A DNA stretch of 64,000 nucleotides, from positions 4,006 through 68,005 of the forward strand of contig DATDOY010000034.1 in NCBI GenBank assembly GCA_035293045.1. Direction: 5' to 3'. Position numbers and translations under genes: made by a program. The notes under the pieces are model-generated. The model did no database searches, was not told the origin of the DNA, and was given only the letters and a program-made list of their open reading frames with translations. Shown piece by piece: positions 6,752 through 50,733 of the stretch. Each line of letters begins with the position of its first letter. Position 1 is the stretch's first letter. Source of the DNA: Acidimicrobiia bacterium. Its GTDB lineage: Bacteria; Actinomycetota; Acidimicrobiia; IMCC26256; JACPCJ01.

Positions 6752-7990
6752 CTACAGATAGATCAGCGGGTTGACCGGCGTGCCCGACTGACGCACCTCG
6801 AAGTGGAGATGCGGGCCCGTTGACAAGCCAGTCGATCCGACGGCACCCACCAGCTGTCCTCGGGTCACGTTCTGGCCCACGCCGACACTCACCGACGACA
6901 TGTGCGCATAGAGGGTGGCGAGCGTGTTGCCGTGGTCGATGATCACGGTGTTGCCGTATCCGCCGCGCGCTCCGGCCCACACCACCTCGCCGTCACCCGC
7001 GGCGACGACGGGCGTCCCCGACCGAGCCCCGAAGTCGACGCCGTTGTGCATGCGCGTCACGCCGAGGATCGGATGGCGGCGCGATCCGAAACCGCTCGTG
7101 AGCGCAGCCGAGATCGGCACACCAAGGAGTCCCGACCCGCTCCCCACGAAGACCTGGCCGCTCTGGCGACCGCGAAGCATCCCGGCGATGGAGTTGGACT
7201 CGGCCTGGAGTGCGTTGAGTTCGGCGTTGAACCGATCCTTCTGGGCGTGCACCTTCGCAAGGAGGCGTTCCTGGTTGTTGACCGCCGCGGCAACCTGGCC
7301 GCGGGCCCGCTGCTGTTCGGCCTTCAGGGAGGCGATGTTGGCCCGCTCGGCGGCGACGACGTCTCGGGCGGCGCGCGCCTCGTCCCGCTCGTCCTCGAGC
7401 CCTGCACGCATGTATTCGACCCGCTCCTTGAGGAGGACAAGACGATCGACGCGGTCCTGGTCGATCTCGGCGACGATCGACAGATACTGCGCGCCGGCGA
7501 TGAGGTCCTGCGGCGTGGCGGCGTCGAGGGCGAGATTGGTCATCACGGCGACCCGACCACCCCCCCGCTGGCGATACAGCTCGGAGGTGATGTCCCCGAC
7601 GTCGTCTTTCATCTCGTCGATGTTGGCGCGCGTCTCGTGGAGCTTTGCGGTGAGGGCGAGGTAGCGGGCGTCGAGCCGCTGCACGTCGGCTTCCGCGACG
7701 GCCACGCGATCCGACGCTGCGGCGAGCTCCCGATCGATGCGGGCGATGGCGGCGTCGAAGCCGTCGAGCTGGGCCTGGGTCTCGGAGAGCTCGCCGAGAA
7801 GCTCAGCCTCCTCGGCCGACGCCTCCCCGATAGCCGCCTTCAGCTCCCGGATGCGCTCCTCGATCTCCCGCTGGCGGCGCGCCTCAGGGGCCGTCGTGCT
7901 CGTGGTGCTCGTGGTGCTCGTGGTCTGGGCGCCCGCGTTCGGACTGACCAGCAGGGCGCAGAGCGCGAGAAGGAGAGCGCGGGCACGCAT
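6752..7990 (-). CDS. Secreted coiled-coil M23 (LytM-type) peptidoglycan endopeptidase, EnvC-like architecture
   Basis: Signal peptide MRARALLLALCALLVSPNAGA, then about 250 aa of heptad-rich coiled coil. The C-terminal M23 domain has intact HNGVD (HxxxD) and GPHLHFE (HxH) metal ligands. Confidence 0.85.
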   Translation of the reverse strand: MRARALLLALCALLVSPNAGAQTTSTTSTTSTTAPEARRQREIEERIRELKAAIGEASAEEAELLGELSETQAQLDGFDAAIARIDRELAAASDRVAVAEADVQRLDARYLALTAKLHETRANIDEMKDDVGDITSELYRQRGGGRVAVMTNLALDAATPQDLIAGAQYLSIVAEIDQDRVDRLVLLKERVEYMRAGLEDERDEARAARDVVAAERANIASLKAEQQRARGQVAAAVNNQERLLAKVHAQKDRFNAELNALQAESNSIAGMLRGRQSGQVFVGSGSGLLGVPISAALTSGFGSRRHPILGVTRMHNGVDFGARSGTPVVAAGDGEVVWAGARGGYGNTVIIDHGNTLATLYAHMSSVSVGVGQNVTRGQLVGAVGSTGLSTGPHLHFEVRQSGTPVNPLIYL

Positions 7991-7999
7991 ACGCTGGGC

Positions 8000-8026
8000 A
8001 TGCTACCCCATTGGCCTCACATGCAA
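8000..8026 (-). promoter_or_regulatory. Candidate promoter for the M23 peptidase gene (-35 TTGCAT, -10 TAGCAT)
   Basis: The minus strand reads TTGCAT (8026-8021), a 15-nt spacer, then TAGCAT (8005-8000), 9 nt before the ATG at 7990. This would give a near-leaderless mRNA. The spacer is shorter than optimal. Confidence 0.3.
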
Positions 8027-8091
8027 CAGGGGTCACACTGCCCTCACTGCACGTGCTCGCAACCGGTCTTACCCCGCCGCACCACATTTCC

Positions 8092-8151
8092 TGTGCACTT
8101 TCCGTCGTTGGATTCCGACAAACCGGACACGATCACGACGGAAAGTGCACA
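8092..8151. terminator. Long palindromic hairpin, member A of a two-copy family
   Basis: TGTGCACTTTCCGTCGT (8092-8108), a 26-nt loop, then ACGACGGAAAGTGCACA (8135-8151). This is a 17-bp perfect stem, 13 nt downstream of the stop of the minus-strand gene 8165..8680. There is no U-tract. Confidence 0.55.
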
Positions 8152-8164
8152 TCAAACGCGATTC

Positions 8165-8680
8165 CTACGGACGATGGGCGTCCATGCACGCTCGAGACAA
8201 GTCCGCCCCGTCGACGCCCATCACGCCGAACTCGGGGGGAGCGACCGTGCCAGGAGATCCGAGGACGCGGGCGAGATCGTCCGCCGCAAACGTCAGGTTG
8301 ACGAGATTGGCGAGGTCATCGCGCGAAGACTCGACGTCGCGCATGTGGTCGCGCGTGACGCCAGAAACGGCCCACGTGGCGACTGCCCCGTGGGCGACGG
8401 GATCGCCCGACTCGCGGAGGTAGGCATCCGCCGACAGGAACCACCAGCCCTCGAGGTCGGGGTCGCGGGTGCGGACCATCCACCCACCGCCGAGTGGGAC
8501 GTCGAGACGATTGGACAGTTCGCTCACCCACGATCGCGGCGCCAGCTCACATCGCTCGAGCCCCCGCGAGGCGCTCAGCGCCCCGTACAGCGCGACGCCG
8601 CCGACGAGGGCAGCAACGACGAATAAGGCGACGACGAGGCGACGTACCTCTCGCTGCCCCGTCCGATCGATCGCCAACAC
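8165..8680 (-). CDS. Membrane-anchored hypothetical protein
   Basis: 171 aa with a single N-terminal TM (LVVALFVVAALVGGVALYGAL) followed by a soluble domain. No motif recognised. Sits between ftsX and the M23 peptidase on the same strand. Confidence 0.55.
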   Translation of the reverse strand: MLAIDRTGQREVRRLVVALFVVAALVGGVALYGALSASRGLERCELAPRSWVSELSNRLDVPLGGGWMVRTRDPDLEGWWFLSADAYLRESGDPVAHGAVATWAVSGVTRDHMRDVESSRDDLANLVNLTFAADDLARVLGSPGTVAPPEFGVMGVDGADLSRACMDAHRP

Positions 8681-35571: not shown

Positions 35572-36522
35572 ATGCCGGACCGGACCGTGACCGCGCTGGC
35601 GGGCGGCGTCGGTGCCGCCCGCTTCCTTCGAGGCCTCGTACGCGTCGTCGCCCCCGAGTCGGTCACGGTGATCGTCAACACGGGGGACGACGACCACTTC
35701 CACGGTCTCGCCGTGTGCCCCGACCTCGACTCGGTCACCTACACGCTCGCGGGCGCGTCCAATCCCGACACGGGCTGGGGCCTCGTCGGCGAGACCTTCG
35801 AGTGCATGCAATCGCTCGAGCGCTACGGCGCCGACACGTGGTTCCGCTTGGGCGATCGGGACCTCGCCACCCACCTCTTCCGCACGACGCGCTTGGCGTC
35901 CGGCGCGACCTTGTCGGCCGCCACCGCCGAGATCACCGCCGCCTGGAGGCTTGGCGTGCGGCTGATCCCGATGACCGACGACCCCGCCCCCACGGTGATC
36001 GTCGGGACGGATGGATCTCGCTTCGCGATGCAGGAGTGGTTCGTGCGCGAACGCTCGGAGCCACCGGTCGCCGCGGTTGACCTCGCGGCGGCGGAACGCG
36101 CCCGGCCGGCGCCCGGCGTTCTCGACGCGATCGCCACCGCCGACATCGTCGTGATCTGCCCGTCCAACCCGGTGATCTCGGTGGCCCCGATCCTCGCCGT
36201 CCCCGGCGTGCGCGCCGCGCTCGCCGCTCGCCGCGATCGCGTGGTGGCAGTGACGCCGATCATCGGGGGACGCCCGGTGCGCGGCCCCGCCGACCGCTTG
36301 CTCTCGGGGCTGGGCATCGAGGTATCCGCGCCCGGGGTGGCGTCGCTGTACGCCGACGTGTGCAGCGCCTTCCTGGTCGACGAACTTGACGCCGTTCTCG
36401 CGCCGGCGATCGAGACCCTCGGGGTCCGCGCCGTTGTCGCTCCAACCCTGATGACCGACGAAGAGGCGGCCGCGACGCTCGCCAAGGTCGCGCTCGGATC
36501 GGTCGGAAGAGCCGGACCGTGA
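35572..36522 (+). CDS. cofD: 2-phospho-L-lactate transferase (CofD/FbiA)
   Basis: MPDRTVTALAGGVGAARFLRGL...VIVNTGDDDHFHGLAVCPDLDSVTYTLAG is the canonical CofD N-terminus. Confidence 0.9.
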   Translation: MPDRTVTALAGGVGAARFLRGLVRVVAPESVTVIVNTGDDDHFHGLAVCPDLDSVTYTLAGASNPDTGWGLVGETFECMQSLERYGADTWFRLGDRDLATHLFRTTRLASGATLSAATAEITAAWRLGVRLIPMTDDPAPTVIVGTDGSRFAMQEWFVRERSEPPVAAVDLAAAERARPAPGVLDAIATADIVVICPSNPVISVAPILAVPGVRAALAARRDRVVAVTPIIGGRPVRGPADRLLSGLGIEVSAPGVASLYADVCSAFLVDELDAVLAPAIETLGVRAVVAPTLMTDEEAAATLAKVALGSVGRAGP

Positions 36523-37217
36523 CCGCAGCGCTCACCGTTCTCCCGCTCACGGGACTCCCGGAGATCGAGCCGGGCGACGACCTCGCCGGGATGGTCGCCG
36601 ACGCCGCCGAAGCCGCCGGGGTCACCGACGGCGACTGCCTCGTCGTCACCTCGAAGGTGGTGTCGAAGGCCGAGGGCCGGCTCGTCGCGGCGGTCACCGA
36701 TGCCGACAAGCGCGCCGTCGTCGAATCCGAGTCGGTTCGCGTGCTGCGCCGCCGGGGTGACCTCGTCATCGCCGAGACCCGTCACGGTCACGTTTGCGCC
36801 AACGCCGGCGTCGACCTCTCCAATGCGCCCGATGGTCACGCCATCCTCTTGCCCGAGGACCCCGACCGCTCCGCACGCCGCATCCGCGACGTGCTGCTCG
36901 GGCGCGGTGTGCGGGTCGCCGTCGTCATCACCGACACCTTCGGACGCGCCTGGCGCATGGGGGTGGTCGACGTGGCCCTCGGGGTGGCCGGCCTGCGCGC
37001 CGTGGTCGACTTGCGGGGGACGCTTGATGCGTCGGGCCGGGAGCTCCAGGTCACCGAAATGGCAATCGGTGACGAAGTGGCCGCGGCCGCCGAACTTGTG
37101 ATGGGCAAAGCGCGCGGCGTGCCGGCCGCCATCGTCCGTGGCCTCGACCCCTCGTGGCTCGGTGACGGCTCGGGCCGCGACCTCATCCGCCCGCCCGCCG
37201 ACGACCTGTTCCGCTGA
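36519..37217 (+). CDS. cofE: Coenzyme F420-0:L-glutamate ligase (CofE domain only)
   Basis: 232 aa: LPEIEPGDDLAGMVADAA...LVVTSKVVSKAEGR...CANAGVDLSN. The GTG start overlaps the cofD stop (GTGA). Confidence 0.85.
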   Translation: MTAALTVLPLTGLPEIEPGDDLAGMVADAAEAAGVTDGDCLVVTSKVVSKAEGRLVAAVTDADKRAVVESESVRVLRRRGDLVIAETRHGHVCANAGVDLSNAPDGHAILLPEDPDRSARRIRDVLLGRGVRVAVVITDTFGRAWRMGVVDVALGVAGLRAVVDLRGTLDASGRELQVTEMAIGDEVAAAAELVMGKARGVPAAIVRGLDPSWLGDGSGRDLIRPPADDLFR

Positions 37218-37263
37218 CCCGCGACCCGCGCGCTCACGCGCTCGATCGCGAACTCCGGTTTGT

Positions 37264-37323
37264 TGTGCAGTTTCCGTCGTGAAAACCGGCCGCGACGCGC
37301 AGAATCACGACGGAAACTGCACA
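37264..37323. terminator. Long palindromic hairpin, member B of the two-copy family; likely bidirectional terminator
   Basis: TGTGCAGTTTCCGTCGTGA (37264-37282), a 22-nt loop, then TCACGACGGAAACTGCACA (37305-37323). This is a 19-bp perfect stem between the convergent cofE (stop 37217) and epimerase (stop 37341) genes. Confidence 0.6.
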
Positions 37324-37340
37324 CGAAACACCAGCGCCCG

Positions 37341-38282
37341 CTAGACCCGTTCGCGGAACCAGGCGAGGGTGCGGGCGATGCCCTCCTCGAACGAGGTGAA
37401 CGGCGTCCAGCCCAGGTGGATCTCGGCGCGGCCGGGATCGAGGGCCGAACGTCGGGTGTCGCCAGCGCGCTCGGGGCCGTAGTTGGCCTGCCCGTCGATC
37501 TCGAGGACGGCAGCCATCACGTCGTAGACGCGCTGCACGCTCGTTTCGACGCCGGTCCCGATGTTCACCAGCAGCCCGTCGGCCTTCTCGGCGCCGCGCA
37601 CGAACCCGTCGACAACGTCGTCGACGAACACGAAGTCCCTCGTGTGCTCGCCGTCGCCGTTGATGGTCGGCCGCTGCCCGCTCAGCAACGAGTGGGTGAA
37701 GATGGCGACGACCCCGGCCTCTCCCATCGGATCCTGGCGCGGGCCGTAGACGTTGGCGAGCGCCAGCGCGGTGTACTCCACATCGAACGCCTCGCGGTAG
37801 TACCGCAGATAGTCGAGCACGGCCTTCTTCGACACCCCATACGGGCAGATCGGGAGTTGCGGACTCCCCTCTTTGGTCGGGATGTCGTCGGGCTCGCCAT
37901 ACAGCGTCCCGCCTGACGCCGCGAACACGATCTTGCGGACCCCCGCCGCCACCGCGCCCTGCAACACATTGAGCGAGCCGAGAATGTTGACCTCCGCGTC
38001 GTGTCCTGGCTGCGCCACCGACACCGGCACGCTGGGTTGGGCGGCCAAGTGGAAGATCACCTCGGGCTGACGATGCCTGATCAGGTCGACGAGGTCGGGT
38101 TGGCGGATGTCGAGGCGATGGAAGCTGAACCGCCTCGTGCCATCGGCGCGGGCCTCGGCGAGGTTCGGGAGCCCGCCGCTCGAGAGGTCGTCGATGGCGT
38201 CGACGTCGTGGCCTTCGGCGAGGAGTCGGTCGACGAGGTGCGACCCGATGAACCCGGCTCCGCCGGTCACGAGCGTCTTCAC
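37341..38282 (-). CDS. NAD-dependent sugar epimerase (UDP-glucose 4-epimerase-like SDR)
   Basis: 313 aa from GTG 38282 (VKTLVTGGAGFIGSHLVDRLL), with the YGVSK catalytic YxxxK. The start overlaps the upstream stop (GTGA). Confidence 0.85.
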   Translation of the reverse strand: MKTLVTGGAGFIGSHLVDRLLAEGHDVDAIDDLSSGGLPNLAEARADGTRRFSFHRLDIRQPDLVDLIRHRQPEVIFHLAAQPSVPVSVAQPGHDAEVNILGSLNVLQGAVAAGVRKIVFAASGGTLYGEPDDIPTKEGSPQLPICPYGVSKKAVLDYLRYYREAFDVEYTALALANVYGPRQDPMGEAGVVAIFTHSLLSGQRPTINGDGEHTRDFVFVDDVVDGFVRGAEKADGLLVNIGTGVETSVQRVYDVMAAVLEIDGQANYGPERAGDTRRSALDPGRAEIHLGWTPFTSFEEGIARTLAWFRERV

Positions 38283-50684: not shown

Positions 50685-50733
50685 GACGTGTGCGTATGGC
50701 GTCGCGCTATGCGCGACGCCATACGCACACGTC
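50685..50733. terminator. 23-bp perfect palindrome with a 3-nt loop between convergent pabC and birA
   Basis: GACGTGTGCGTATGGCGTCGCGC-TAT-GCGCGACGCCATACGCACACGTC. The right arm overlaps 2 nt of the birA stop codon (50732-50734). Confidence 0.7.

Follow-up and report, generated by a model that had tools for sequence, protein, structure and literature searches.

Two long palindromic hairpins of closely similar sequence occur in the stretch of Acidimicrobiia DNA analyzed here (64,000 nucleotides, hereafter the window), each a short distance past the stop codon of a gene. The locus raises the question of whether the two belong to a family and, if so, what kind of element it is and what keeps its sequence in place. 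The first-pass annotation of this DNA named a conserved terminator type, a REP-like element and a palindromic protein-binding site as candidates, and took a compensatory base change between the two copies as the sign of a selected structure. The first two of these candidates point to the right neighborhood, but the covariation argument behind the selected structure does not survive comparison with further copies. Segments identical to the window are present in ENA, Logan and JGI metagenome assemblies.

The two hairpins of the window and their gene setting

Copy A (8092-8151) consists of TGTGCACTTTCCGTCGT, 26 nt and ACGACGGAAAGTGCACA, with arms that are perfect over 17 nt, and copy B (37264-37323) of TGTGCAGTTTCCGTCGTGA, 22 nt and TCACGACGGAAACTGCACA, with arms perfect over 19 nt (Table 1). 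The coordinates and sequences originally reported for both copies were exact on re-checking. The same applies to the exchange at arm position 7 (C/G in copy A, G/C in copy B), the lower G+C content of the arms (53% for the 17-nt arm of copy A, about 69% for the window), the absence of a U-tract 3' of both hairpins, and the distances from the stop codons (13 nt from the stop at 8165 for copy A, 17 nt from the stop at 37341 for copy B). The unit is, however, longer than first described. It reads GTTT-NN-arm...arm-NN-AAA(C), with six additional bases on each side that provide weak extra pairing. Folding energies of the two hairpins as RNA range from -35 to -51 kcal/mol, and on both strands the z-scores fall between -5.5 and -7.8. 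When the arm pattern is searched in the window with up to three mismatches, the four matches obtained are exactly the four arms of A and B; 100 dinucleotide shuffles of the window gave a mean of 0.36 arm matches, and none of them contained four or more.

Table 1. Positions in the window of the two hairpins, their parts and the adjacent genes.
Feature	Coordinates	Strand	Description
Copy A full unit	8086..8157	-	GTTTGA-TGTGCACTTTCCGTCGTGA-loop-CAACGACGGAAAGTGCACA-GGAAAT on the strand of the upstream gene; CM R1 72.9 bits
Copy A low-coordinate arm	8092..8110		17 nt perfect (8092-8108); last two bases (TG) imperfect
Copy A high-coordinate arm	8133..8151		Minus strand equals the family consensus TGTGCACTTTCCGTCGTGA
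Copy A loop	8111..8132		22 nt, locus-specific; 24/24 identical in the orthologue L077, including CA at 8109-8110
Upstream gene of copy A	8165..8680	-	171-aa ORF (ORF171) after ftsE and ftsX; stop 13 nt before the hairpin
Downstream gene of copy A	6752..7990	-	M23 peptidase with coiled-coil region; start about 100 nt from copy A
Copy B full unit	37258..37329	-	GTTTCG-TGTGCAGTTTCCGTCGTGA-loop-TCACGACGGAAACTGCACA-ACAAAC on the epimerase strand; CM R1 81.3 bits
Copy B low-coordinate arm	37264..37282		19 nt, G at position 7
Copy B high-coordinate arm	37305..37323		19 nt; the family's only arm with C opposite position 7
Copy B loop	37283..37304		22 nt, locus-specific; C-to-T SNP in strain variant L002
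cofE (F420 ligase)	36519..37217	+	Converges on copy B; stop 46 nt before the hairpin
NAD-dependent epimerase/dehydratase	37341..38282	-	Converges on copy B; stop 17 nt from the hairpin

Copy B is located between two convergent genes, cofE and the gene for the NAD-dependent epimerase. The ORF upstream of copy A has no match in Pfam. Canonical intrinsic terminators are defined by a G+C-rich stem, a loop of 3-8 nt and a U-tract immediately 3' of the hairpin. Neither A nor B passes a scan for such terminators, the loops being 22-26 nt long and the tails reading GGAAAUGUGG and ACAAACCGGA. Canonical hairpin-plus-U terminators are not enriched in the window in general (25 found versus about 22 expected). 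Rfam returned no hits in the window at the gathering threshold, and in E-value mode only sub-threshold matches to miRNA precursors, that is, generic matches to long hairpins.

In the find_repeats list of short-range inverted repeats from the window, A and B are two of the three longest that are fully complementary. The third, at 50685-50733, is a palindrome with a perfect 23-bp stem and a 3-nt loop (GACGTGTGCGTATGGCGTCGCGC / GCGCGACGCCATACGCACACGTC). It lies between convergent stop codons, 18 nt past a plus-strand stop (50667) and abutting a minus-strand stop (50732), and is terminator-like by scan on the minus strand. Its arm agrees with the family arm described below at 12 of 19 positions in register (TGTGC....CGTCG), and it scores 35.5 bits with the covariance model of the family (CM R1). 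This palindrome may be remotely related to the family, or it may simply be one more hairpin at a gene end.

A dispersed family at gene ends

The first-pass annotation had proposed searching for more copies, and scans of sequence collections did retrieve them, so that A and B are members of a sequence family rather than a chance pair. The family comprises 10 independent loci in at least four organisms, namely the source organism, the Acidimicrobiia MAG nzgw84 and two other metagenome organisms, and most of its copies lie just past stop codons. Its unit of about 60-72 bp is built from 19-nt arms (TGTGCA[C/G]TTTCCGTCGTGA) that enclose a loop of 20-24 nt.

In a scan of 185,579 species genomes, with a pattern that required the inner stem on both arms, true members were found only in MAG nzgw84, as three exact-core copies on three contigs (L027, L058 and L064). 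A complementary pattern was used for the JGI metagenomes. In metagenome Ga0209640 it recovered A and B as well as two loci from the same population, L067 and L068/L070, the latter being two strain versions of one locus; two other JGI metagenomes contributed one locus each (L066 and L071). One more copy, degenerate in sequence, came to light at L070 8098-8158 when the flanks were searched with a fuzzy pattern (L070b; the first copy on that contig is L070a). Five loci were thus found in the metagenome contigs of the source population; the counts for it and for nzgw84 come from metagenome contigs and a MAG, and the patterns miss diverged copies. CM R1, which was built from the 10 loci, and a fuzzy arm search revealed no copies beyond L070b in about 254 kb of locus sequence. 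Outside cellular genomes, the viral contigs and the phages gave no matches to the family, and the plasmids only chance-level matches of 24-26 nt.

A hairpin in the Acidimicrobiales MAG ant_bin.517 (L004 1439-1487), 35 nt past a stop codon, may represent a diverged branch of the family. Its inner 13 nt (TTTCCGTCGTGAT / ATCACGACGGAAA) are common to the family, its outer stem (GAGCAC/GTGCTC) is different, its loop is shorter, and it scores 42.6 bits with CM R1. Hits in other taxa (Rothia, MFD02581, Terriglobia and others), which share the inner 10-mer and differ in their outer stems, were treated as unrelated hairpin families. Other Actinomycetota have multi-copy long palindromes of their own, as in MAG MFD02581.bin.1.1 (L006 4276-4340, L007 6045-6109 and L019 1431-1495) and in Rothia (L013, L018 and L032). 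These share the inner 10-mer TTTCCGTCGT/ACGACGGAAA with the family within different outer stems; one example, GATAGTCCGAGACG-TTTCCGTCGT...ACGACGGAAA-CGTCTCGGACTATC, was seen three times. Dispersed palindrome families seem to be common in Actinomycetota.

Gene 3' ends are favored by the family. As to whether copies always follow stop codons, a point raised in the first-pass annotation, seven loci do so at a distance of 13-36 nt (A, B, L067, L070a, L070b, L058 and the divergent L004), but one copy is inside an operon and another is found 227 nt past a stop codon, some 50 nt ahead of radA. None of the family loci is situated between divergent genes. According to Pfam, the neighboring genes encode an M23 peptidase, CofE, an epimerase, PDH E1, an AMP-ligase, a GNAT acetyltransferase, an acyl-CoA dehydrogenase and a PMT-like protein, in addition to radA and cbiB/cobC; they are unrelated housekeeping genes without a common theme.

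The operon-internal copy is known from two orthologous contigs that are 80% identical over 2.6 kb and carry the element at the same cbiB-cobC junction of a cbiB-cobC-cobQ operon (L064 4654-4728 and L071 2334-2392). In both, the element overlaps the last codons and the stop of cbiB directly before cobC. The cbiB frame runs through the hairpin, and the C-terminal residues and the stop codon are supplied by the element. Judged from these two contigs, the element appears to persist vertically at this junction. The arm identity between L064 and L071 (37/38) is not significant, because the search patterns force 24 of the 38 positions; at the free positions the agreement is 13/14 (p of about 0.2).

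Conservation, copying and loss

In the alignment of the 10 copies the 19-bp stem is 95.8% paired. Thirteen of the 19 pairs are invariant and are therefore uninformative on structure. Arm position 7 is a C-G pair in six copies, a G-C pair in copy B only, and mismatched in three (L058, L070a and L070b). The mismatch is an uncompensated G.G in L058, L068/L070 and L070b, the last with further mismatches. The covariation score is 0.071, compared with 0.076 for the shuffles, of which 319 out of 500 score at least as high, and the combinations of the two arm versions are close to those expected if they assorted independently. Covariation does not support a structured RNA, since one double change stands against three mismatches at the only variable stem position. 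The compensatory change thus holds for the pair of A and B, but not for the family. Uncompensated substitutions in further copies were what the first-pass annotation had itself named as evidence against its argument from covariation, and that argument has to be abandoned. The motif AAACCGG, to which the annotation had drawn attention, is indeed present in the loops of A and B, but in only two of the 10 loops of the family.

With 13 of 19 pairs invariant and no covariation, it is the sequence that is conserved and not merely the pairing. Arms are near-identical between lineages even at positions that were free in the genome-scan pattern (1-7 and 18-19), while the loops have nothing in common between lineages. 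Across lineages, the aligned copies indicate that the outer arms are better conserved in sequence than the loops. At the core positions, arm invariance is partly a product of search patterns that demand exact cores; since most copies were found in this way, the apparent conservation is inflated, and the copies found independently of the arms (L070b, L077 and L082) are the diverged ones.

Where an arm has G at position 7, this is the 5' arm in gene-sense orientation (four of four cases), which is only suggestive of an orientation bias. The C of the window in copy B is probably derived, repairing a G.G mismatch, because the copy B of a relative (L082) has G at this position of the right arm; only one such event was seen, and template switching within the palindrome accounts for the repair no less well than selection.

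Evidence for copying differs between lineages. Among the five copies of the nzgw84 type, which occupy unrelated loci in either orientation and have unrelated flanks, the loops are homologous, meaning that the whole unit was copied; the alignment scores of these loops are 9-18, as opposed to at most 2 for other pairs. Their orientation relative to the upstream gene (3 sense, 1 antisense) is not significantly biased. In the source lineage, what the copies share is GTTT-NN-arm...arm-NN-AAA(C). The five loops there are 22-23 nt long yet mutually unrelated, and recent copying is not demonstrable for this reason; source-type loops cannot be oriented objectively. No copy has a direct target-site duplication, and the flanks extend the palindrome instead (GTTT..AAAC). 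Pfam identified no transposase among the neighboring genes in about 250 kb, and a phmmer search of about 250 kb with an approximate IS200 TnpA query, a weak test, found nothing. About 254 kb of sequence contain no solo arm and no longer element bounded by these ends. Two further candidates were rejected: an attC-like site, given that the flanks read GTT...AAC and not AAC...GTT, and an invertible switch, for which a spacer of about 22 bp is too short.

Orthologous sites show how readily the element is absent or lost. Relatives with an 82-84% identical CofE have no element between cofE and the epimerase gene, and their spacer is too diverged for insertion borders or a duplication to be recognized at site B; in a 92% relative, the contig ends 36 nt past the cofE stop. 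The cofE/epimerase spacer of an 82% CofE relative (L075 9698-9759, L076 2571-2632) holds an unrelated hairpin, GTCTGCGGCG...CGCCGCAGAC, whose 11-bp stem and loop of about 26 nt with a GGGG/CCCC mini-stem give it a geometry similar to that of the family.

At site A, ORF171 and the element are both missing from relatives whose M23 peptidase is 63-72% identical, and there ftsX abuts the block upstream of the M23 gene. In a relative with 95% identity, ORF171 is 146 aa long. By this distribution, ORF171 together with copy A is a lineage-specific insertion. The upstream block itself, about 45 nt directly before the M23 peptidase start (minus strand, 7991-8045; CTGTTGCATGTGAGGCCAATGGGGTAGCATGCCC), shows conservation across L077, L084 and L085, including where element and ORF171 are missing. 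It looks promoter- or leader-like (TTGCAT ... TAGCAT) and was not flagged by a simple sigma-70 scan.

The closest relative, in Logan run SRR33230358, has an M23 peptidase that is 95% and an epimerase that is 96% identical to those of the window. At its site A (L077 1583-1641), the loop is conserved at 24 of 24 positions, the left arm at 15 of 19 (TGTGCACTTggtgcCGTGA) and the right arm at about 8 of 19, and the hairpin is lost (MFE -29 versus -53 kcal/mol, z of about 0). At its site B (L082), only the right arm and the adjoining flank survive (TCACGACGccAAgTGCACA-ACAAACCGGAG) and the left arm is scrambled. Neither site retains structure (z of about 0), with the flanking genes of site A and the epimerase kept; this loss at both sites argues against an indispensable structure, and the elements appear dispensable in relatives. 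Copy E of the family is decaying. The two arms that survive in the closest relative carry the same TC-to-GG change, and from these comparisons arms appear to change in blocks and in concert, not by point decay. Candidate causes of the scrambling are repair provoked by the palindrome, the loss of a maintaining factor followed by selection against the bare palindrome, and assembly error. The right flank in L077 (TCAAACGCG) is the exact complement of the left flank of copy A in the window, so that the ancestral palindrome was probably longer.

Three close strains differ in what lies downstream of the same epimerase, as seen in the orthologues of window 37200-37345: convergent cofE in the window, an APH-family kinase in L082 (6744-6950), and a minus-strand gene 5 nt away in L083 (2895-3073), the last from a second run, SRR33230357. 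Such differences suggest that the elements sit at rearrangement-prone borders. The copy B site is at the edge of a variable region beside a cell-envelope glycosyltransferase cluster.

Explanations and known systems

The reading that we favor, with moderate confidence, is that the hairpins are lineage-restricted dispersed palindromic repeats of low to moderate copy number, of the REP/REPIN or TRIT kind, in uncultured Acidimicrobiia. The unit has been copied to unrelated intergenic sites and, on this reading, survives where it is harmless, chiefly between convergent genes and just past stop codons. As part of the upstream transcript, at its 3' end, it would fold into a hairpin of about -35 to -50 kcal/mol, which could block 3' exonucleases and may help to end or pause transcription without a U-tract. 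Its near-invariant arms would be kept by something that reads the sequence and not just the pairing, most plausibly the copying enzyme of the element or some other protein that binds hairpins. Once such maintenance lapsed, the long palindrome would quickly be broken up.

A serious, if unlikely, alternative is that the hairpins are dedicated terminators or 3'-end processing signals without a U-tract, selected by the host in the manner of TRIT, with a trans factor that reads the sequence of the double-stranded RNA stem and with dispersal being incidental. Their high stability and their location 13-36 nt past stops and between convergent genes suit this role, and since hairpin-plus-U terminators are not enriched (25 versus about 22), another signal must end the transcripts. 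Copy A separates the end of the ftsEX-ORF171 unit from the conserved M23 upstream block, and an unrelated hairpin of like geometry occupies the orthologous L075 spacer. TRIT is moreover an earlier example, from an actinobacterium, of a terminator motif that is palindromic and conserved in sequence (PMC3152330). However, a U-tract is lacking and the terminator scan accepts neither copy. A conserved copy overlaps the end of cbiB inside the cbiB-cobC-cobQ operon, a place in which strong termination would do damage. The element is rare as well, being carried by only two gene ends in 64 kb, and the closest relative is structureless at both sites (z of about 0) despite having kept the flanking genes. 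Compensatory variation is absent, and the 3:1 excess of sense over antisense copies of the nzgw84 type is not significant.

We consider it distinctly unlikely, though worth stating, that the arms are the recognition sequence of an undiscovered trans-acting system in Acidimicrobiia, which would actively preserve or rewrite the 19-nt arms wherever the element occurs and take no account of the spacer of about 22 nt. Candidates for such a system are a non-RAYT transposase or nuclease that has been domesticated, and a factor with affinity for hairpins or double-stranded RNA. It would account for arms that are identical between lineages while the loops have a fixed length and unrelated sequences, for the TC-to-GG change that two loci of the sister lineage have in common, and for the block-wise scrambling of arms around a conserved loop once maintenance fails.

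The protein-binding site of the first-pass annotation would take the form of a duplex-DNA site for a dimeric or tetrameric protein (a regulator, nucleoid protein or recombinase), with inverted 19-bp half-sites whose centers are 39-42 bp apart, about four helical turns. Invariant arms around a spacer that is free in sequence and near-constant in length (20-24 nt), together with the lack of covariation, would fit such a site. It is nevertheless improbable, considering that the copies are at gene 3' ends or in operons and none is in a divergent promoter region, that their neighbors have no common theme, and that the closest relative has lost the site and not the genes. Moreover, 19-bp half-sites 41 bp apart match no operator type that we know of.

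Equally doubtful is a classical MITE, that is, a deletion derivative of a DDE insertion sequence with the 19-nt arms as terminal inverted repeats (5'-TG...CA-3'). The arms do start with TG and end with CA, and in the nzgw84 lineage the whole unit has been dispersed to unrelated loci. Against this stand the lack of a target-site duplication at any copy, the flanks being inverted repeats, the lack of a solo arm or a longer element with these ends in about 254 kb, the absence of anything similar from the plasmid, phage and viral collections, and the unrelated loops within the source genome. Finally, a chance pair of unrelated hairpins is refuted, as none of the 100 shuffles reached four arm matches and eight further loci have the same arms.

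If the family is only a selfish repeat, its value lies mainly in annotation. With a working covariance model, the family can serve as a marker for gene 3' ends and for strain typing in Acidimicrobiia MAGs. It would be a second actinobacterial case in which the sequence of a stem and not only its pairing is conserved, and it bears on how transcripts end without U-tracts in high-G+C bacteria. The main interest lies in this sequence-level conservation of the arms and in their scrambling around a conserved loop. The family also lends itself to studying how long palindromes are maintained or broken up. Acidimicrobiia is a large and mostly uncultured class. Dispersed palindromes are already well described in Proteobacteria (REP/REPIN) and mycobacteria (TRIT). 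A limited literature search found no dispersed palindromic repeats in Acidimicrobiia, and to our knowledge none has been described for the class.

Hairpin terminators without a U-tract, termed I-shaped, occur in high-G+C Actinobacteria, with examples from Streptomyces and the actinophage phiC31. The family resembles them in forming long perfect hairpins past stops, without a T-run and often between convergent genes. I-shaped terminators are individually unrelated in sequence, however, whereas the copies of the family repeat a single sequence across many loci and several organisms. With MITEs, the family shares a short non-coding unit with terminal inverted repeats that has been copied to unrelated loci; it differs in that neither a target-site duplication nor a cognate insertion sequence was found, and 60-72 bp would be unusually small.

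The likeness to the REP and REPIN elements of Proteobacteria (PMC3116915, PMC5581495, PMC3733652) is closer. The family shows the REPIN architecture of two inverted conserved repeats around a variable, less conserved spacer that together form one long hairpin. Like REPINs, it is extragenic and mostly located downstream of genes, between convergent or tandem genes, and it shares with them vertical inheritance at a locus, lineage-specific arm variants and decayed singlets. At the level of the monomer the two differ. A REP is a short imperfect palindrome with a 5-13 bp stem and an unpaired GTAG or CGTC tag at one end (PMC3733652), while the family has a 19-bp stem whose arms are not themselves REP-type stem-loops: they have no internal stem-loop beyond CAC/GTG, CGTC is found only inside the paired stem, and no unpaired tetranucleotide is conserved. 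REP elements number tens to hundreds per genome and their families typically exceed 100 copies, compared with three found here in nzgw84 and five in the metagenome contigs of the source population. The family is hosted by an actinobacterium, and that phylum does not appear in the text of the GTAG/CGTC survey (PMC3733652). REP copies flank a single-copy RAYT (Y1 transposase) gene; no RAYT was found near the family copies in the roughly 250 kb searched.

The nearest counterpart within the phylum is the TRIT ("Tuberculosis Rho-independent terminator") motif, with 147 copies centered at about -8 inside the coding end and reported only in Mycobacterium (Gardner et al. 2011, PMC3152330). The family belongs to another class and lies at +13 to +36 past the stop, as opposed to about -8 for TRIT. 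Set side by side by description, the TRIT consensus being given only in a figure of PMC3152330, both are palindromes of actinobacteria that are conserved in sequence as well as in structure, and both are dispersed and tightly associated with gene ends, TRIT being bidirectional.
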